Positions 26,510 to 35,293 of a stretch of DNA of 64,000 nt are shown piece by piece (within the stretch, counting starts at the first letter, position 1; every line of letters begins with the position of its first letter). Location: assembly GCA_900696485.1 (NCBI GenBank), contig CAADGG010000013.1, forward strand, positions 124,015 to 188,014, written 5' to 3'. Origin of the DNA: an uncultured Pseudomonadota bacterium (GTDB taxonomy: Bacteria > Myxococcota_A > UBA9160 > PR03). Position numbers and translations under genes: made by a program. Below the pieces are notes generated by a model that was not told the origin of the DNA, did not search any database, and saw only the letters and a program-made list of their open reading frames with translations.

Positions 26510-27360
26510 CGGCGGCGATCCGGCGAGCGTGGACTGCTCTCACCGGTCAGGAGCGCGATGCGTCGCTGGATGATCTCGAGCTTGCCACCGTCGTCCCGAC
26601 GCAGGGCTCCGGAAGGCGGGAGTGCAGCGATGGTTTCGCGCGTCGTCACCAGCCGATCTCGCGGTGCCGGATGGCTCGACAGGAATGCCGGCCCCGACGG
26701 CCCTCCCTCCGCGATCAGCGTCTCGAAGAAGCTCGGCAGCCCGTTCGGGTCGTAGCCCGCACGCGGCAGGACATGCACGGCAAAATCATCGGCCTCCCGC
26801 TCGGCCTCACGACCGAAGGAGTTGAGGACGCCGGCCAACCCGAGTCCCGTTGCGAGATTGGCCGCATTGGCCCCGACACTGCCGCCGAGCAGACCGCCGC
26901 CCAGCACCGCGGCGGTGTGCGCGATGCCCGCGGCCCGTTGTTTGCCGTAGTTCTCGGCCACGTGGCGCTCCGCCACGTGGCCGACCTCGTGCGCGATCAC
27001 ACCGGCCAGTTCGGAGACGTTGCGCGCGGCGAGGATCGTCCCGGTATGCACGTAGATCATCCCCGCCGGTCCCGCGAAGGCGTTGATGGTCGGGTCGTCG
27101 ACGACGGAAAATTCATAGCTGAACGGCTGCGGCCCGGCGGCGACGACGACCCGCCGTCCGATCGCATCGATGTAGCGGACGATGACCCGGTCGGTGACGA
27201 GCCGATGCTGGCGCCGGATCTCCGCCTCGAACTGATCGGCGAGCTGCTGCTCCTCCGGAACCGTCAGCGTCGCGCAGCCGGCCGTGACGAGCGCCGCGAC
27301 CGCGATCGCGACGCATCCCAGCGGCCGCCGAACCCGCAGCTCAGAGCAGAGCCGCCGCAT
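26506..27360 (-). CDS. M48 family zinc metallopeptidase, lipoprotein
   Basis: ATG at 27360. Lipobox 'LVTAGC'. 'HEVGHVAERH' is an HExxH motif. Its stop overlaps the sppA start by 4 nt. Confidence 0.8.
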   Translation of the reverse strand: MRRLCSELRVRRPLGCVAIAVAALVTAGCATLTVPEEQQLADQFEAEIRRQHRLVTDRVIVRYIDAIGRRVVVAAGPQPFSYEFSVVDDPTINAFAGPAGMIYVHTGTILAARNVSELAGVIAHEVGHVAERHVAENYGKQRAAGIAHTAAVLGGGLLGGSVGANAANLATGLGLAGVLNSFGREAEREADDFAVHVLPRAGYDPNGLPSFFETLIAEGGPSGPAFLSSHPAPRDRLVTTRETIAALPPSGALRRDDGGKLEIIQRRIALLTGESSPRSPDRRR

Positions 27361-28543
27361 CCTCTCCTCCCACCTTGCGCAGCGTCTCGCACACGTGCTT
27401 GAGGATCGACAGAACGGAGGCATCGGCCGAGTCGTTGTCGACGATCGGGATCTCGTAGCGTTCGGCCAATTCGAGGAAGTAATCCTGGATCCGCAGGATC
27501 GCCTCCATGTTCTCGAGATAGCGATGCGGCACGCGCCGGCTCTCCCGGGCCCGCTGTTCGAACCGCGCGCGGAACGCGGCCACGTCGAGTGTCGCAACGA
27601 CCAGCGAGATCACGTGGGCCTTCTCGGCGTACGGAGACAGGTCGAGGAGACCCGGGACGATCGACACGCCATCGAGGATCAAGCTGGTGTTCTCGGCGAC
27701 GGCGCGGTCCAGCATCGCACGCACGCCGACCGATACGATCGACGCCTGCGCCAGAAAGCCCTCGATCACCGGATCTTCGCTCGGGGCCACGCGGCCGATC
27801 ACGCGGTGCGCATCGTATGAGGAGGCGTGGATCGCCGGCACCAGTTCCGGCGCCAGGACCAGGCGCATGATCTGCCGGATCGAATCGGTGGACAGCACGG
27901 CCTGGATGCCGAGCCGGCGCGACACCTCGAGCGCAAGCGAGGTCTTTCCGGAGCCTGTCGCGCCGCCGAGCAGCAGGATCACCGGCCGGTCCGGCTCCTG
28001 GAAACGGCGCCAGACGAGGTAGCGCGCGGCGGTCCGCGCCCCGAAACGCCGCTCCAGCGTCTGGTACGCAAGCCGGCGCAACTCGTGGCGGTCGATCTCC
28101 TTGTGCCCGCGCAGGACCAGCGTCCCCTCGATCTCGCGAGCGACATCGAAGGCATCGTCCGGCTCGATCGCGGCGGCGAGCAGCGACTGGGACAGGAACC
28201 CCTTCGAGAACGGAGCGGATCCGGCTGGACTCGTCACGTGGATCCGAGGTCCGAAGGCCGGCGGGCGGGCGTCCTCGAGCAGATGCCGCTCGCGCAGCAC
28301 GTCGTCGACGATGCGCGCGACGTCGACGAGCGGCACGACGCCGCGGCCGCGCAACTGGTCCCGGACGGCCGTGGCGGCCTCGAAGGCATCCTCGAAGGAC
28401 AGTCCGCGCGCCGTCAGCGAATGGACCAGGATCCCGCGCATGAACGGCCGCGGACCCGAGTCGTGCTCGACGAAAATGCGCTCCCGGCCGCCCTGCGGCG
28501 GCCCCGGGGGCGGCGCGCCCTTGTGCCGGACCTGCCCCGTCAT
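27341..28543 (-). CDS. 2-phosphoglycerate kinase-like protein (ATP-cone plus P-loop kinase)
   Basis: N-terminal ATP-cone-like region, Walker A 'LLLGGATGSGKTSLA', then 'STDSIRQIMR', as in the archaeal 2PGK family. Confidence 0.7.
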   Translation of the reverse strand: MTGQVRHKGAPPPGPPQGGRERIFVEHDSGPRPFMRGILVHSLTARGLSFEDAFEAATAVRDQLRGRGVVPLVDVARIVDDVLRERHLLEDARPPAFGPRIHVTSPAGSAPFSKGFLSQSLLAAAIEPDDAFDVAREIEGTLVLRGHKEIDRHELRRLAYQTLERRFGARTAARYLVWRRFQEPDRPVILLLGGATGSGKTSLALEVSRRLGIQAVLSTDSIRQIMRLVLAPELVPAIHASSYDAHRVIGRVAPSEDPVIEGFLAQASIVSVGVRAMLDRAVAENTSLILDGVSIVPGLLDLSPYAEKAHVISLVVATLDVAAFRARFEQRARESRRVPHRYLENMEAILRIQDYFLELAERYEIPIVDNDSADASVLSILKHVCETLRKVGGEDAAALL

Positions 28544-28616: not shown

Positions 28617-28646
28617 TTGACTCCGAACTGCTCGCGCGGCTAGTGT
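28617..28646 (+). promoter_or_regulatory. Candidate sigma70-type promoter (TTGACT-18 nt-TAGTGT) upstream of the MerR-like gene
   Basis: TTGACT at 28617-28622 and TAGTGT at 28641-28646. The ATG at 28661 is preceded by 'gccagggggg'. Confidence 0.3.
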
Positions 28647-28660
28647 CGTCGCCAGGGGGG

Positions 28661-29497
28661 ATGGCCGTGCCGACCGAGCGCGAGCCTGCGGACGACCCGA
28701 AGGACCCGGGCGACCCGGTCAGCCGGCTGGACCCGGTCAACCGCCTGGACCCGGCCGACCGGAACGACCCGGCCGACCGGAACGACCCGGACGCTTCGGC
28801 CTCGATCACCTCGCTCGCTCCGGTCGCCTCGGCGACGTCGGTGAACCCGGAGCGCGCGGCCGGATCGGTCCGGCGGCGCCCCCACGGTCTCGGCGTCAGC
28901 GATCCCGACCCGTGCCGCGATCCCGACCCGTGCCGAGCTGGGACGCCCGACGGGGCTGCCGGATTCGCCGAGGCCTCTCGGCATCCGGCGGCCGGCGCTG
29001 TGAGCGGACCCCTTTTCCCGACCGGCGATGTTCTGCGCGTGATCGGCGTGTCCCGCCGGCAGCTCCAATACTGGGCCGAGACGGGGCTCGTCGCTCCGTC
29101 CGCCCGTACGCCCGGCGGGCACCGGCGCTACACGTTCGCCGACCTCGTCGCGCTGAAGGCCGCCAAGCAGTTGATCAATGCGGGGATCTCGGTCCAGCGG
29201 ATCCGCAGCAGCATCGGTGCGCTCAGGAGAATCCTCCCGCAAGTTCGGCACCCGCTGTCCGAACTGGTGCTCGTCGCCACCGGAGACGTGGTCCTCGTGC
29301 TCCAAGAAGGGACCGCGTTCGAGGCGCTCTCCGGCCAGGAGTGGATCGTCGAGGTGGCGCGCTTCCAGCGCGAGATCGAGCACGTCCTCGGATCCGACGA
29401 GGCCGTGGCATCGAAGCCTGCGGTAGGGAAGAACCCGGGGCCGCGAACGGCCGTCAAGGTGGCGGCTCGACGTCGGGAGGACGCTCGCATCGCCTGA
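28661..29497 (+). CDS. MerR-family transcriptional regulator with a repetitive Asp/Pro-rich N-terminal extension
   Basis: ATG at 28661 in ORF 27827..29497. HTH region 'FPTGDVLRVIGVSRRQLQYWAETGLVAPSARTPGGHRRYTFADLVALKAAKQL'. The first ~110 aa are low complexity and are encoded by 18-bp tandem repeats. Confidence 0.75.
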   Translation: MAVPTEREPADDPKDPGDPVSRLDPVNRLDPADRNDPADRNDPDASASITSLAPVASATSVNPERAAGSVRRRPHGLGVSDPDPCRDPDPCRAGTPDGAAGFAEASRHPAAGAVSGPLFPTGDVLRVIGVSRRQLQYWAETGLVAPSARTPGGHRRYTFADLVALKAAKQLINAGISVQRIRSSIGALRRILPQVRHPLSELVLVATGDVVLVLQEGTAFEALSGQEWIVEVARFQREIEHVLGSDEAVASKPAVGKNPGPRTAVKVAARRREDARIA

Positions 29498-29585
29498 CGC
29501 CCTCCTGCGGACGAAGCTCTGGAGCCCCGGCACGAGGACTTGCTGTCCGCGAGGTGTGGTCCGCCCCGCCTCGCGCCAGGGGGGG

Positions 29586-30713
29586 ATGTTCATGACGCCC
29601 GACTCCAGCATGCGAACCGTGGCCATCGTCAATCAGAAAGGCGGCTGCGGGAAGACGACGACGACGGTCAATCTCGCGGGCTGCCTGGCCGCCGACGGCG
29701 CCCGCGTGCTCGTGGTGGACATGGATCCGCAGGCGCACGCCACGCTGGCGCTCGGCGTCGACCCGGAGCGTGTCGAGCAGAACCTCTACGAGGTCCTGGC
29801 CGAAGCAACCGGCGCCGCGCGACTCGACGAAGTCATCGTACCGGCGTCGCAACGACTTCACGTCGCACCGTCCGGCATCGCGCTCTCCGCCCTCGAACAG
29901 AAGCTGGCGGCCGAACGCGCCGAAGGCCGTACCGAACGGCTCGCGCGAGCCCTCGCCGGCGTCCGGGATCGCTACGACTTCGCGCTCATCGACTGCCCGC
30001 CGCACGTCGGTCTGCTGACCTTTGCGGCGCTGCGCGCCGCGGACGACGTGATCGTGCCTCTCGAGGCCAGCCACTTCGCGCTCCACGGCGTCCAGAAGCT
30101 GCTCGAGACGATCGCGCTGCTCGGCGAACGGATCGCTCATGCGCCGGTGGTTCACGTGCTCCCGACGCTGTACGACGGCCGCACGCGCTTCGCGCGCGAG
30201 ACGCTCGCGGAGATCCGCCGTTGCTTCGGCGAGCGCTGCTTCGACACGGTGATCCGAAGCTGTGTACGGCTGCGGGAGGCCGCCCGTGCCGGCGTACCGA
30301 TCGTGCGCTACGCGCCGCGCTCGAACGGCGCCCTGGACCATGGCGCGCTCGCCGTCGAAGTCGCGGCGCTGCTGGCCCCTCTGGACCGCACGGCGTCTGG
30401 CATCCGCGCCGAACGATGCCACGACGCGCAATCGGCCGAGACGCTGCGTCAGATCGTCGTCGAGTATCACGACGCCGACGCGCGCGACGTCCGCATCGCC
30501 GGCGACTTCAACGGCTGGGTTCCCGATCGTGACGTCGTCTCCGAGACCGTCGGTGACGATGGCCGGCGGGTGTGGCGGAAGGTGTTGCATCTGGCGCCCG
30601 GGAATTACGAGTATCGCTACATCGTGGATGGCGAGTGGCGTGAGGATCCGGGCAATCCTGACCGCGTACCCACTCCGTTGGGGCCTCCGAACTCACGGCT
30701 GGTGGTGCGCTGA
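29586..30713 (+). CDS. ParA/MinD-family ATPase fused to a C-terminal CBM48 / AMPK-beta-type glycogen-binding domain
   Basis: Deviant Walker A 'NQKGGCGKTTT', 'VVDMDPQ', 'IDCPP'. C-terminal 'VRIAGDFNGW...LAPGNYEYRYIVDGEWREDPGNP'. I chose the ATG at 29586 because it shares the 'cgccaggggggatg' context with the MerR-like start. Confidence 0.85.
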   Translation: MFMTPDSSMRTVAIVNQKGGCGKTTTTVNLAGCLAADGARVLVVDMDPQAHATLALGVDPERVEQNLYEVLAEATGAARLDEVIVPASQRLHVAPSGIALSALEQKLAAERAEGRTERLARALAGVRDRYDFALIDCPPHVGLLTFAALRAADDVIVPLEASHFALHGVQKLLETIALLGERIAHAPVVHVLPTLYDGRTRFARETLAEIRRCFGERCFDTVIRSCVRLREAARAGVPIVRYAPRSNGALDHGALAVEVAALLAPLDRTASGIRAERCHDAQSAETLRQIVVEYHDADARDVRIAGDFNGWVPDRDVVSETVGDDGRRVWRKVLHLAPGNYEYRYIVDGEWREDPGNPDRVPTPLGPPNSRLVVR

Positions 30714-30721
30714 ACCCGCCG

Positions 30722-31501
30722 ATGGCCCGTGAACTCCAAGACGTCCTGCACTACTTCCTGCCCGATCCGATCGGTCCGATCGAGATCTCGGACCGCCTCG
30801 CCGCGCCGCCGGCGCGACGGGTGAGCGTGCTCGTCGCAGAACGCGACCTGGTGCGCCTGGCGCTGTCGTGGAACCTGGCGGTCGCCGCGGCGCAGTTGGG
30901 CGCACGGGTCTCGCTCGTGGTGCCGCCGGATCCGCATCGATGTGCCCCGTGGCCTCGGCGCGGACCCGGTCCGCTGGGCGTCGAGGTCTCGCAAGCCGAG
31001 AGCAGCCGACTCTCCGCGCTGGCCACGGCGGCCCACGGTGCGGCCCAGCGAATTGCGGCACGGCCCGGCGTGCCGGCTCTCGTCTTGACCGTGGTCCCCC
31101 TCGTGCGAGTGCACGCCGCCAGCGACGCCGGCTCGTTGCTCGACCATGTCCTGCTGCTGACGCGGCCCGACGAACGCGAGCTGGTCGAGACGTGGGCGGG
31201 GCTCGGCGCGATCTCGGCGCAGGCTCCCCACGCGCACATCGGCGTTTCCGTCTTCGGCGTCTCGTCGCTCGCCGACGCGCGCCGCGCCTTCGAAGGTCTG
31301 GCCGCTCTGGCCGAGCTGGAACTGGCCCGTCCCCTCGCGAGCTACGGCGTCCTCATCGACGATGTGCACCTCTCGCGCTCCATCGTCTCCCAGCGGCCGA
31401 TCACGCTCAGCCAACCCGCGTCGCCCGCCGCACGCGCCTTGGCGGACGTCGCTACGATGCTGCTCGAAGACGCCGGCGACCCCGCCGAGCTGCCGGGGTG
31501 A
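30722..31501 (+). CDS. Degenerate ParA/MinD-like protein lacking the Walker A lysine loop (putative pseudo-ATPase)
   Basis: 259 aa, starting 8 nt after the ParA stop. 'VSVLVAERDLVRLALSWNLAVAAAQLGARVSLVVPPD' sits where MinD/FlhG have 'GKGGVGKT...NLA.ALA..G.RV.L.D.D'. The C-terminal 'YGVLIDDVHLSRSIVSQRPITLSQPASPAARALADVA' also aligns by eye. Confidence 0.5.
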   Translation: MARELQDVLHYFLPDPIGPIEISDRLAAPPARRVSVLVAERDLVRLALSWNLAVAAAQLGARVSLVVPPDPHRCAPWPRRGPGPLGVEVSQAESSRLSALATAAHGAAQRIAARPGVPALVLTVVPLVRVHAASDAGSLLDHVLLLTRPDERELVETWAGLGAISAQAPHAHIGVSVFGVSSLADARRAFEGLAALAELELARPLASYGVLIDDVHLSRSIVSQRPITLSQPASPAARALADVATMLLEDAGDPAELPG

Positions 31502-32133
31502 GCGACGCCGCAGCAGAGCCCCATCCCGGCCCCCTGCGCCGGACGTTGCGCGCCCGCCTGGGGGCCCTCGGCGCGCCGCTGCAGATCCTCGCGGAGGGCC
31601 TCCTCGGCGAAGGGGACAGCCGGATCGACTGGATCGCCGTCGAGCCTGCCGGACGCCTCTGGGTGATCCTCGTCGATGAGGACGGGAAGGACGATCACCT
31701 GCTGGTGCGGGGTCTGGCCCAGCGAGCCTGGGTCCGCGCGCGGCTCCCGGACTGGCAGCAGTTGGCGCGGGATCTGCCGGCCCGCTCGGAGCCGCAACCC
31801 CTCCTGGCACTCGTGGCGCCTGCGTTCTCACGCCTCGTCCGGGCCGCGGCGCATGAGGCGGATCCCGCGGGCGGCATCCGTCTCGGCCACTTTCGCTGGC
31901 AGCCCGGTCCGCACGGCAACGCCGAGCTGCTGCTCGAGCCCGTGCCCCCGCTCGAGGCCACTGCTCAGCGCGACGCTCCGCCTCCGGAATCGGCGCCGAG
32001 CGGAACCGGCCACGTGCTTGCCTCGAGCTTCAAATCCGGGCTGACCGACCGGGACTTCGAGAGTCCCAACGGCCGCCAGGATGGTCGCCTCGAAGGGGGT
32101 GACAATTCTCGGCCTGCCGATGACAATTTTTGA
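31498..32133 (+). CDS. Hypothetical protein with a NucS/DUF91-like (PD-(D/E)xK fold) core
   Basis: The GTG at 31498 overlaps the upstream stop (GTGA). 'RIDWIAVEPAGRLWVILVDEDGKDD...LVRGLAQRAWV....PLLALVAPAFS' follows the pattern 'D.(L/I)AVD..G.L.(V/I)IE.K......(V/I).Q...Y..W......(I/L)LVA..F'. Confidence 0.45.
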   Translation: MSDAAAEPHPGPLRRTLRARLGALGAPLQILAEGLLGEGDSRIDWIAVEPAGRLWVILVDEDGKDDHLLVRGLAQRAWVRARLPDWQQLARDLPARSEPQPLLALVAPAFSRLVRAAAHEADPAGGIRLGHFRWQPGPHGNAELLLEPVPPLEATAQRDAPPPESAPSGTGHVLASSFKSGLTDRDFESPNGRQDGRLEGGDNSRPADDNF

Positions 32134-32267
32134 CACTTTCCCACGGTCCGGTGCCACCTCACTACGGGGGTGATTCGGACGTCGAGGTTTGCGGCCGCGG
32201 CCGAGGCCGCTCCGTGTGCCTTGCGTCGGTCTCCGGTGGATGCCCGGACGGGAAGGGGAAGTGCGGG

Positions 32268-32960
32268 ATGGCAGCAGGAGAAACTGCAGCAGGACGAGCG
32301 GCAGTCAGAACCGTTGGAAGCGTCGGAACAGAGGGAGCGGCGGGCGGCGCCTCGCGGGCGCAAGCCCGGATCCAGGCTCCCAGAAGCGATTCCGGACCGA
32401 ACGCCGCGACGGCCGCGCGCCCGGTGCCGGACGAGGTCCTCGTCGATCGCGTCCGCGCAGGGAATCAGAGCGCCTTCGACGAGATCTACCGCCGCTACTT
32501 CCCGCGCGTATATCACTTCGTGGCGCGGCGGCTGCGCAACCGATCGGATGCGGAGGAGACCGTCCAAGAGGTCTTCTTCAACGTCTTCGCCTCGATCGAT
32601 TCGTTCCGCGGGGAAGCACCATTCGGCGCCTGGGTGTTCGGCCTTGCGCGTCGCACCGTGTCGGGACGCTTCAAGAAGAGGCTGCCCTTCCTGGTGCCGA
32701 TCGGCGATGACGACGCCACCAGCGCGTTTCATGCCGTGTCCCAGGAGCCGGACCCGCTCCAGTCGTACGAGTGTGGCGAGCGGCTGGCACGCCTCGAAGG
32801 AGCCGTCGCGACGGAGCTGAGCGCCGAGCAGCGCCAGCTCTTCGAGCTGCACCACCTCGAGCACCGGTCGATCCAGGAGATCGCCGGCCTGCTCTCGAAG
32901 AGCGAAGACGCCGTCAAATCGCATCTCTACCGCGCGCGCAGGGTCCTGCTCGCGCAGTAG
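32268..32960 (+). CDS. ECF-type RNA polymerase sigma factor
   Basis: The ATG at 32268 is preceded by 'ggaaggggaag'. Region 2 'FDEIYRRYFPRVYHFVARRLRNRSDAEETVQEVF'; region 4 'QRQLFELHHLEHRSIQEIAGLLSKSEDAVKSHLYRAR'. Confidence 0.85.
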   Translation: MAAGETAAGRAAVRTVGSVGTEGAAGGASRAQARIQAPRSDSGPNAATAARPVPDEVLVDRVRAGNQSAFDEIYRRYFPRVYHFVARRLRNRSDAEETVQEVFFNVFASIDSFRGEAPFGAWVFGLARRTVSGRFKKRLPFLVPIGDDDATSAFHAVSQEPDPLQSYECGERLARLEGAVATELSAEQRQLFELHHLEHRSIQEIAGLLSKSEDAVKSHLYRARRVLLAQ

Positions 32961-33824: not shown

Positions 33825-35189
33825 TCAGGGCCCCGACGCCGTCTCGCCCTCCGCCGGGGCGAACTCCTCGATGCGCGCGAGGATCGCATCGCGCCGCACC
33901 GCCGTCGCCGCGGCATCCGCGGCCTCGAGGTTCAGCCGGACGACCGGCTCGGTGTTCGACGCGCGCACGTTGAACCACCAGTCCGGGTAGCGAACCAGCA
34001 GTCCGTCGAGCTTCACGATCTCGGCCCGGCCGGCGTGGTCGGCCTCCAGCGCACGCAGCAGCCCCGGCACGTCCGCGACGCGGCGATTGATCTCTCCGCT
34101 CGGGCAGTAACGCCGCAACGGCGCGATCCACTCGGAGAGCGGCTTGTCCTCTTCCGCCAGCACGTCGAGCAGCGCTGCAAACGCCGCGATGCCGTCGTCG
34201 TGCACCAGCGTCGGCGAGAAGCGGAAATAGAAATGGCCGGAAAGCTCGCCTGCGAAGACCGCACCACTCTCGCGCATCTGCGCCTTGATGAAGGCATGAC
34301 CCACACGACACATCTCCGGCGTGCCGCCGGCCTCGGCAATCGCCTCTGCCGTCGCGCGGCTCGAGCGCAGATCGAAGAGCACACGGCCGCCACCGTGCCT
34401 GCGCAGCACCGCACGGGCGAGCAGTCCGGTCATCAGATCGGCGCCGATCGGCTCCCCGCGCTCATCGACGAACATCGCACGGTCGGCATCGCCATCGAAC
34501 GCAACGCCGAAATCGGCACCCGTCCGGCGTACCGCCTCGATCACGTCGTTCAGGTTCTCCCGCTTCAGCGGGTCGGCCTCGTGGTTCGGAAAGGTGCCAT
34601 CGGGTTCGAAGTACAGCCGCTCGGTCTCGAGCGGCAGCTCGGCGAGCAGCGGCTCGAGACCGACCGAGGCCATGCCGTTGCCACAGTCGATCGCCACGCG
34701 CAGGCGCGGACAGCGGCCGCCGACGGAGCGGGCGTGCTGCACATAGCCGGCGCGGACGTCCTCGTGGCGCCACGCACCGCGCGGCGTCTGCGGCGGCGCA
34801 CTCTCGCGAGCGAGCTGCGCGATCTCCTGCAGCCCTGTGTCGCCGCCCACCGGGATCGCGTGCTCGCGGCACACCTTGATCCCGTTGTAGCGCGCCGGAT
34901 TGTGGGAGGCGGTGACCATCAGGCCGCCCGAAAGACCGAGCGCTTCCACGGCGAAGTACAGCATCGGCGTCGATACCAGTCCGAGATCGACGACCGCGAC
35001 ACCGCCATCGCGAATCCCGTCGATCACCGCTGCAGAGAGCTCCGGGGAGCTGGGACGGGCGTCGCGCCCGACGGCGAGCTCGCGCGCCTTCATCCAGCCG
35101 GCGACGGCCCGGCCGATCCGGCGGCCGGCCTCGGCCGTCAGCTCCTCCCCGTAGAGGCCTCGGATGTCATAGGCCTTGAAGATCGACAC
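33825..35189 (-). CDS. Phosphomannomutase/phosphoglucomutase
   Basis: The GTG at 35189 gives 'SIFKAYDIRG'. Active-site 'TASHNPARYNGIK'; metal loop 'FDGDADR'. Confidence 0.9.
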   Translation of the reverse strand: MSIFKAYDIRGLYGEELTAEAGRRIGRAVAGWMKARELAVGRDARPSSPELSAAVIDGIRDGGVAVVDLGLVSTPMLYFAVEALGLSGGLMVTASHNPARYNGIKVCREHAIPVGGDTGLQEIAQLARESAPPQTPRGAWRHEDVRAGYVQHARSVGGRCPRLRVAIDCGNGMASVGLEPLLAELPLETERLYFEPDGTFPNHEADPLKRENLNDVIEAVRRTGADFGVAFDGDADRAMFVDERGEPIGADLMTGLLARAVLRRHGGGRVLFDLRSSRATAEAIAEAGGTPEMCRVGHAFIKAQMRESGAVFAGELSGHFYFRFSPTLVHDDGIAAFAALLDVLAEEDKPLSEWIAPLRRYCPSGEINRRVADVPGLLRALEADHAGRAEIVKLDGLLVRYPDWWFNVRASNTEPVVRLNLEAADAAATAVRRDAILARIEEFAPAEGETASGP

Positions 35190-35293
35190 GGCCGCGCAGT
35201 GTACGGAGAAGCCCGCACAGCGGCCAACGCGAGCGCCGTGGGGTCGAATCCGCGCCGCTTGACCCATTCCCGGGCGGGCGTCACCCTATCGCC

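Follow-up and report, generated by a model that had tools for sequence, protein, structure and literature searches.

We describe a four-gene module at positions 28661-32133 of a 64-kb window (the whole stretch of DNA that was analysed, 64,000 nucleotides of contig CAADGG010000013.1 from an uncultured Myxococcota bacterium), centred on a ParA-type ATPase whose C-terminus carries a predicted carbohydrate-binding module (CBM) of the CBM48 type. We give an even chance to the reading that this module is an undescribed ParA-type positioning or tethering system acting on α-glucan granules, in which the ATPase carries its own cargo- or surface-binding domain. ParA/MinD ATPases are the means by which bacteria generally place large objects, among them chromosomes and plasmids, carboxysomes, arrays of chemoreceptors and the divisome; to our knowledge, no member of the family acts on carbohydrate granules or carries a cargo-binding domain on the ATPase itself. 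The four genes are referred to as G1 (MerR-like), G2 (ParA-CBM), G3 (pseudo-ATPase) and G4 (NucS-like fold), and their coordinates are those of the window (Table 1).

All evidence presented here is computational, and a single lineage of uncultured Myxococcota supplied all the sequences. Computation shows which domains and folds the proteins have, which motifs are conserved, how the genes are coupled and what their phyletic pattern is; the comparative set comprises 86 related loci, each from a different metagenome-assembled genome (MAG). A scan with G2, using one genome per species, returned 473 relatives. The statistics on overlaps and gaps cover 72 loci, the alignment of the G1 core 70 loci, the inspection of promoters 17 loci and the G3 profile 47 homologues.

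The ParA ATPase and its carbohydrate-binding module

G2 matches the Pfam families AAA_31 (6e-52, 176 bits) and CbiA (85 bits), both above the cutoff. Its nearest solved relatives are a ParA of the Myxococcus xanthus type (8ray, 5.6e-43) and Soj from T. thermophilus (1wcv, 5e-41), while McdA and MinD match it far more weakly, at 1e-17. The deviant Walker A motif QKGGCGKT is invariant in the orthologues (86/86), and the motif-2 (switch I) aspartates D45 and D47, which align with D58 and D60 of M. xanthus ParA, are invariant as well. Position 228 is a Lys or an Arg in 86/86 orthologues and aligns with R238 of M. xanthus ParA, a DNA-binding residue that was mutated in a study of the ParABS system of that bacterium (PMC12462528). 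Judged from these motifs, G2 is an intact Soj-type ParA. In-frame alternative starts of the gene lie at 29556, 29592 and 29610, and conservation among the orthologues begins at about residue 5-9.

The C-terminal ~90 residues of G2 match the Pfam profile AMPK1_CBM (2.5e-9, 37.6 bits for a cutoff of 26.8) and fall just below the cutoff of the CBM_48 profile (21.2 bits vs 22.4). Among PDB sequences, the domain matches the CBM of AMPK β2 (2.8e-6), and also AMPK β1, SEX4 and LSF1. In the structure of the AMPK β1 CBM with cyclodextrin, Polekhina and co-workers are said to have found, in 2005, that the glucan is contacted by two Trp, a Lys, a Leu and an Asn. When G2 is aligned to the AMPKβ CBM, a Trp, a basic residue, a second Trp and an Asn stand at the glycogen-contact positions: W311, R344 and W351 are invariant (86/86) and N369 is present in 75 of the 86 orthologues. 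The G2 domain resembles the CBM48 domains of AMPK β and SEX4 in its profile and PDB matches and in these conserved contact positions, and differs from them in its fusion to a ParA ATPase, in the invariant Arg that replaces the Lys and in the Leu contact position, which is variable. With such conservation the G2 CBM looks functional. Glycogen as its ligand is plausible, at a confidence slightly short of even, and a polyglucan or glycogen cargo for the module is what we infer.

The initial annotation of this DNA, made from the sequence alone, had called G2 a bona fide deviant-Walker-A ParA with a C-terminal CBM48 domain, and both halves of that description are borne out by the matches to AAA_31 and AMPK1_CBM and by the QKGGCGKT motif. 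It had also named no described system of such composition. Indeed, full-text literature searches found no published ParA/MinD ATPase with a carbohydrate-binding domain or a glycogen cargo, and no description of a pseudo-ATPase partner; a term search of the 2024 review of the ParA/MinD family (PMC11407121) returned neither carbohydrate nor glycogen as a cargo.

The N-terminal peptide of G3 and the proteins that carry it

The ORF (open reading frame) that follows the ParA-CBM gene starts with M-[PA]-R-x-L-x-D-V-L-[HD]-[YF]-[FL] in 86/86 loci; R3 is present in 84 of them, and L5, V8 and L9 are essentially invariant. In the window the peptide reads MARELQDVLHYFLP. It is the sole part of the downstream protein that survives every truncation, divergence or domain replacement, and in the structural model of G3 it appears as a low-confidence helix followed by a linker.

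In M. xanthus, an unstructured N-terminal motif in ParB is required and suffices for binding to ParA and, together with DNA, for stimulation of the ATPase (PMC12462528). According to the same study, the ParB residues that matter are L11, R13, L15, L18 and I19; the motif contacts V116, L150, L152, L155, L187 and L192 of ParA, and R13 lies beside Y81, E82, D110 and E117 (PMC12462528). The G3 residues M1, R3, L5, V8 and L9 follow exactly the spacing of these five ParB residues (i-2, i, i+2, i+5, i+6). On the side of the ATPase, eight pocket positions are kept or conservatively replaced in G2 (Y81→Y68, E82→E69, L150→V141, G151→G142, L152→L143, L155→F146, L187→L178 and L192→I183). Since the peptide is ParB-like and the pocket is kept at these positions, G3 is probably the cognate ATPase activator, and we consider a cognate pairing of G2, as the ATPase, with G3, as its activator, to be likely. 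The pseudo-ATPase had first been suggested as a candidate adaptor on general grounds; the peptide, found in 86/86 loci, and the G2 pocket now bring specific support to this suggestion.

G3 itself matches no Pfam or NCBIfam family. A profile built from 47 sequences matches FlhG (8e-9), and also FleN and MinD. The AlphaFold model of G3 has a predicted local distance difference test (pLDDT) score of 89, and a Foldseek search with this model returned FlhG first (4rz3, 1e-11, template modelling (TM) score 0.63-0.67), then FleN, MinD and Soj. The position of the Walker A motif, where FlhG has GKGGVGKS, is occupied by ERDLVRLA (aa 40-47). In all 47 homologues this position reads xxRD[VL]VR and lacks GKT; an aspartate of the Walker B type is missing too. 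On the model and these motifs, G3 is a conserved pseudo-ATPase of the MinD/FlhG branch and not a decayed copy of G2. The description of G3 in the initial annotation, a ParA/MinD paralogue with a replaced P-loop, stands for the loss of the P-loop and for the relation to MinD, but the protein is nearer to FlhG/MinD than to ParA. Matches of G3 to armadillo-repeat proteins of the PDB were rejected as compositional, no individual stretch passing the threshold. The homologues of G3 form 66 clusters, found solely in assemblies of uncultured Myxococcota or "Deltaproteobacteria".

FlhG and FleN are thus the closest relatives of G3 in both sequence and fold. A short N-terminal peptide of FlhG reportedly activates a partner NTPase, FlhF, a finding credited to Bange and colleagues in 2011. 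Unlike FlhG and FleN, G3 lacks the Walker A, switch and Walker B acidic residues in every homologue and has no flagellar context, and the sequence of its peptide does not resemble the DQAxxLR motif of FlhG.

G4 matched nothing in Pfam, NCBIfam or the PDB sequences, whether searched as a single sequence or as a profile. Its AlphaFold model (pLDDT 79 overall, above 85 in the core) comprises one folded domain and a disordered tail, with no second domain. The best fold matches (Foldseek) are the nucleases NucS (2vld, 2.5e-4, TM score ~0.38) and EndoMS (5gke, 9e-4), followed by XisH, SfsA, the AdnAB nuclease, the R2 endonuclease and FokI. D44 is kept and the ExK motif is absent, so that catalysis by G4 is unlikely. 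The nuclease-domain fold agrees with the NucS/DUF91-like core assigned at first sight, but without ExK and without a Pfam NucS match the protein is no NucS. Profile searches therefore leave both downstream proteins, G3 and G4, outside any Pfam family, and lead from G3 to FlhG, FleN and MinD.

The G4 family counts 380 representatives of ~180-250 aa in a library of 1.84 billion proteins, and none of 10 sampled members has a Pfam match. Its most invariant part is not the core but a motif of the disordered tail, F-[KR]-S-G-L-x-D-x-D-[FL], with F178 and L182 invariant and a conservation of at least 90% for R179 and G181. Such a conserved motif is typical of a docking peptide. In NucS, the tail binds the clamp. 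G4 has in common with NucS/EndoMS the PD-(D/E)xK fold of its core, for which they are the top structural matches, and the arrangement of a core plus a tail that bears a terminal docking motif; it differs from them by the TM score of ~0.38, by the lack of the N-terminal DNA-binding domain of NucS and, as said, by the lack of ExK and of a Pfam match.

The stop of G3 and the start of G4 overlap in 69/72 loci, mostly by 8 nt (NTGgcTGA) and in some by NTGA; retention of the overlap at this frequency indicates a conserved translational coupling. The gap between G2 and G3 is at most 20 nt in 30/72 loci. Furthermore, in two loci the peptide of G3 is fused to a G4-like core (L044:7103-7639, ARDLGDVLHYFLDD; L064:7102-7599, ARELGDVLHFFLDD). 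These fusions consist of the peptide, a Pro/Ala-rich linker and the core, and contain neither the MinD-like body nor the FRSGL tail motif. The pattern of coupling and fusion makes a complex between G3 and G4 a likely arrangement. Across the relatives, identity is 60-81% for G2, 31-67% for G3 and 29-65% for G4.

The locus, its regulator and the neighbouring genes

The region is chromosomal, with ~71% G+C, and its four ORFs lie co-directionally on the + strand (Table 1). G1 and G2 are separated by 88 nt, G2 and G3 by 8 nt (30714-30721), and a GTGA overlap joins G3 to G4 (31498-31501), so that the tight packing first described for the four genes, with its 8-nt gap and GTGA overlap, was recovered in full. 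The claim that the starts of G1 and G2 share the same 14-nt initiation context was not: CGCCAGGGGGGATG occurs once, at 28650, and the copy before G2 has seven G, which leaves CGCCAGGGGGG plus ATG common to both sites. Similar G-run sites precede several other genes of the window and are also found before G1 and G2 in related loci, distant ones included, which makes them the usual ribosome-binding site of the lineage, with no special meaning. A shared start context as a regulatory signal was therefore ruled out, the match being inexact and the site a generic G-run Shine-Dalgarno sequence.

Table 1 Features of the module and of its surroundings (coordinates of the 64-kb window)
Feature	Position	Strand	Description
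2-phosphoglycerate-kinase-like gene	27341-28543	-	ATP-cone and P-loop protein; NCBIfam PRK04220, 4e-93, below cutoff
Sigma-70-like promoter upstream of G1	28617-28646	+	TTGACT (28617-28622), 18-nt spacer, TAGTGT (28641-28646), T-rich stretch before
G1	28661-29497	+	MerR-type winged helix-turn-helix protein, 278 aa
18-nt tandem repeats in G1	28694-28799 and 28899-28934	+	DP(x)(x)R(L/N) hexapeptides and 2x DPDPCR
MerR_1 match of G1	29021-29206	+	aa 121-182
G2	29586-30713	+	Soj-type ParA (aa 9-260), variable linker, C-terminal AMPKβ/CBM48 domain (aa ~288-375, nt 30447-30710)
G3	30722-31501	+	FlhG/MinD-fold protein without P-loop, 259 aa
N-terminal peptide of G3	30722-30763	+	ParB-like peptide, proposed to bind ParA
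Walker A position of G3	30839-30862	+	ERDLVRLA
G4	31498-32133	+	Degenerate PD-(D/E)xK (NucS-like) fold, 211 aa, GTG start, core aa 10-150
Tail motif of G4	32029-32058	+	F-[KR]-S-G-L-x-D-x-D-[FL]
ECF sigma gene	~32331-32960		Downstream of G4
PMM/PGM-type mutase gene	33825-35267	-	Same syntenic block

G1 matches the Pfam family MerR_1 with E=1.1e-14 (54.7 bits vs a cutoff of 21.6). Its residues 1-120 form a repeat-encoded, lineage-specific extension that is not conserved. In the initial annotation, G1 was a MerR-type helix-turn-helix (HTH) protein with a repeat-encoded N-terminus; the match and the 18-nt tandem repeats leave that view in place. Most orthologues, with a length of 150-210 aa, lack the extension or have a different one, and the start of G1 is a putative one. 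A core of 150 aa is conserved in 70 loci and comprises the HTH, a strongly conserved stretch that looks beta-rich (LAELVLVATGDVVLVF...FEAVSGQEW) and, after it, a basic tail. In the window the tail ends with R-x-A (29483-29494). The orthologues usually end with the basic tail followed by R-[STIM]-A-COOH, mostly R-[ST]-A (L001, L004, L006, L015, L025, L068), an end that might serve for degradation, as a tag, or for docking, as a further motif of that kind.

The best PDB sequence match of G1 is CvkR/Alr3614 (7xn2, 1.5e-9), for the HTH only; RacA follows at 1e-5, and GlnR, TnrA, TipA and CueR are also among the PDB matches. The last 60 aa, likewise conserved, seem to be rich in beta structure and have no match among the solved C-domains of MerR proteins. 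G1 thus belongs with the MerR family (CvkR/Alr3614, RacA, BldC) by its HTH, the atypical MerR repressor CvkR being the closest, and departs from it by a conserved, apparently beta-rich domain where classical MerR proteins have a coiled coil and an effector domain. The spacer of the promoter upstream of G1 is ~18 nt, compared with the 19-20 nt typical of MerR activators. A T-run, TTGACT, a spacer of ~18 nt and a -10-like hexamer recur upstream of G1 in most of the 17 loci inspected; the promoter-like element was seen in L001, L002, L004, L006-L009, L013, L015, L016, L021, L025, L037, L043 and L068. It sits between the divergent 2-phosphoglycerate-kinase-like gene and G1, and an ACAA(A/T)TT box further upstream recurs as well. 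We lean towards G1 being a regulator rather than a structural part of the module.

The non-coding DNA of the locus holds no repeated centromere-like sites and no parS-like repeats, the direct repeats being the coding repeats of G1, and the search for a MerR operator palindrome in it gave nothing convincing. At the other end of the module, the last codons of G4 (32094-32135) contain GTGACAATT...GATGACAATTTTTGACAC, the sole promoter-like match of the scan. The tail peptide encoded there, GSDNSRPADDN(S/F), is kept in the closest relatives only, and conservation at the end of G4 may be due to a DNA signal for the downstream extracytoplasmic function (ECF) sigma gene and not to the protein.

The flanking genes are housekeeping (ffh, hisG, ccmF, a GPAT, polA, lpxD). 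A defence system or a mobile element was ruled out on this context and on PADLOC, which gave generic HTH and P-loop matches only. The 2-phosphoglycerate-kinase-like gene adjoins the module, in divergent orientation, in essentially every locus (L001-L085), including those without MerR. At ~7-8 kb downstream of G3, L001 (16059-), L002 (15703-16837) and L004 (15614-16789) have two ArsA/Get3-like genes in tandem, members of the ParA/MinD superfamily as well, which come after a Zn-ribbon protein, tatA and the PMM/PGM-type mutase, all within the same syntenic block.

This setting raises the question of whether G2 is instead a metabolic or transcriptional switch, an ATPase of the Soj/FleN kind with a nucleotide state set by G3-G4, glycogen status read through the CBM and control over, for example, the neighbouring sigma factor of the ECF type or the MerR protein. 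The CBM of AMPK is a sensing module in eukaryotes, the nearest relatives of G3, FlhG and FleN, regulate FlhF and FleQ, and after the module there is always an ECF sigma gene, with a MerR regulator before it. However, the ECF sigma gene is part of the block that is syntenic throughout the lineage and is kept with or without G1 and G4, no direct link to transcription was found, and G2 keeps two features typical of ParA gradients on the nucleoid, its DNA-binding residue and a pocket of the ParB type. We therefore regard a switch as improbable.

Among the relatives of G2, the best 80 of the 473 are all MAGs of the same lineage, a few of them labelled Spirochaetales. Spirochaetales or Spirochaetaceae labels are carried by the MAGs of L007, L009, L019, L048, L051, L058, L062, L063, L065, L078, L080 and L084, and a Gammaproteobacteria label by that of L085; in these public records the taxonomy is probably mislabelled.

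Proposed mechanism and relation to known ParA/MinD systems

In the scheme that we propose, the physical interactions, the glycogen ligand and the direction of regulation are what we infer from the features above. The ATP-bound dimer of G2 would use the conserved basic residue 228 for non-specific binding to the nucleoid, and its two CBM48 domains would bind α-glucan (glycogen) granules, which would thereby be linked to the chromosome. G3 would deliver the activating peptide to G2, with its nucleotide-blind MinD/FlhG body serving as a scaffold. G4, which the stop/start overlap presumably keeps at a fixed ratio to G3, would complex with it, and the dead nuclease-like core and the tail motif of G4 would probably set the location of the activator, be it DNA, the granule or some other protein. 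The operon would be regulated by G1 at the conserved promoter.

Carried further, the scheme would make the module the first ParA/MinD system for a polysaccharide storage granule. The ATPase would bind glycogen via its CBM48 domain and would either bridge it to the nucleoid or use the granule surface as a matrix, as MinD does with the membrane; a peptide-bearing, nucleotide-blind MinD paralogue and a dead nuclease-fold protein would time the release, and granules would be evenly distributed or inherited in a widespread uncultured Myxococcota lineage. We offer this fuller version tentatively, as roughly a one-in-three proposition.

Several observations weigh against a granule system, or against the unity of the module. 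The first concerns the pocket of G2, where three positions differ from those of ParA: D110→V/A, V116→Q and E117→K/R (K106 in G2). The last of these changes could nonetheless fit the pairing with G3, as K106 might form a charge pair with D7, an invariant residue of the peptide (i+4, usually a small residue in ParB), and insulate G2 and G3 from the canonical ParAB.

The second is the neighbourhood. The order 2-phosphoglycerate-kinase-like (-), MerR, ParA-CBM, G3, G4, ECF sigma is kept in 68/86 loci, in line with the co-occurrence that a functional module would predict; but the 15-20 kb around it, from the 2-phosphoglycerate-kinase-like and M48 genes through the PGM and ArsA-like genes, are syntenic across the lineage, and with the whole neighbourhood collinear, adjacency and gene order alone are weak evidence. 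Gene order was accordingly dropped as the decisive test of linkage, since loci picked via G3 or via G2 show the entire neighbourhood collinear. In the extreme case, G1, G3 and G4 would be unrelated neighbours of a ParA paralogue, brought together by nothing but a collinearity that all the relatives share and that need not mean a common function, and the resemblance of the peptide to ParB would be a coincidence. Such an accident would have to account for a peptide that is present in 86/86 loci and survives truncation, divergence and domain replacement, for a spacing equal to that of five experimentally defined ParB positions, for the G3/G4 overlap in 69/72 loci and the short G2-G3 gap in 30/72, and for the two fusions of the peptide to a G4-like core. 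Because of the peptide, the coupling and the fusions, we hold this to be the least likely of the alternatives, and a very improbable one.

The third is a clade that has neither MerR nor G4. The gene after ParA-CBM is still there, as seen by inspection and by searches with hidden Markov models (HMM), and encodes a reduced G3 of ~190 aa, except in L044 and L064, which have the fusions described above. Going by a table of tblastn results, G1, G3 and G4 had seemed to be lost jointly, on three or more occasions, with ParA-CBM retained; for G3 this reading was mistaken, as inspection of the gaps and the HMM revealed divergent or truncated genes and the two fusions. The four-gene module of the initial annotation is thus a conserved, unannotated cluster centred on ParA, but not an obligate unit, and its constant core is ParA-CBM plus a peptide-bearing partner.

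The remaining points concern the cargo. CBM48-type domains can also act as protein-docking modules, as in AMPK. No genes for glycogen synthesis or degradation were seen among the ~25 ORFs of the window that were scanned, only the PMM/PGM-type mutase; the genomes at large were not examined. Moreover, in the ParA/MinD systems described according to the 2024 review (PMC11407121), it is the partner and not the ATPase that carries the cargo. If the activator of this module were off the granule, directed positioning would be hard to explain, and the module might only tether.

An alternative is that the G2-G3 pairing is real and the CBM48-like domain is a protein-docking or regulatory module, the cargo then being whatever G3-G4 binds: a DNA site or a protein assembly recognised by G4, or G1 acting as a RacA-like anchor. 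The fold of G4 is that of DNA enzymes, the HTH of G1 also resembles the chromosome anchor RacA, and both the absence of glg genes from the scanned ORFs and the usual division of labour between ATPase and partner would be in order. Against such a docking role, strong purifying selection acts on the Trp pair and on the basic and Asn contact positions of the CBM, the clade without G1 and G4 keeps ParA-CBM with an intact CBM, and the non-coding DNA of the locus offers no repeated centromere-like sites. We rate this alternative as unlikely, at about one chance in four, and retain the α-glucan granule system as the reading to be compared with known systems.

With the chromosomal ParABS system (M. 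xanthus, PMC12462528), the module shares the deviant Walker A motif, the motif-2 aspartates, the basic DNA-binding residue and most of the peptide pocket in G2, as well as a partner whose N-terminal peptide has the matching spacing of Arg, Leu and hydrophobic residues. It differs from ParABS in that no neighbour has a CTPase or HTH domain of ParB and no parS-like repeat is present, in the additional CBM48 domain and the change of the pocket residue E117 to Lys, and in a partner made of a MinD/FlhG fold without P-loop plus a nuclease-like protein. Profile searches of the module proteins and of the neighbours in related loci found no member of the ParB, McdB or MinE families, in keeping with the initial annotation, which had recognised no such partner. 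McdAB, PomXYZ, ParC/ParP, PpfA/TlpT and BcsQ follow the same logic as the module, that of an ATPase dedicated to a non-DNA structure and activated by the terminal peptide of a small partner. In McdAB and similar systems, however, cargo binding resides in the partner, whereas here the carbohydrate-binding module is fused to the ATPase, and McdA is only a distant match of G2 (1e-17). The module is thus a full member of none of the known classes: it is not ParABS, it is not McdAB, G3 is not an enzymatic MinD/FlhG and G4 is not a NucS.

If the granule reading is true, carbohydrate granules would be a new class of cargo for the ParA/MinD family. The activating peptide of the ParB type would be movable onto an unrelated scaffold, a pseudo-ATPase of the same superfamily as its target, and in two loci onto a nuclease-like one. 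The change of E117 to Lys, together with D7 of the peptide, would be a possible specificity switch that insulates paralogous ParA systems within one cell. Our work also brings function-level hypotheses for two unannotated families, that of G3 (66 clusters) and that of G4 (380 representatives).

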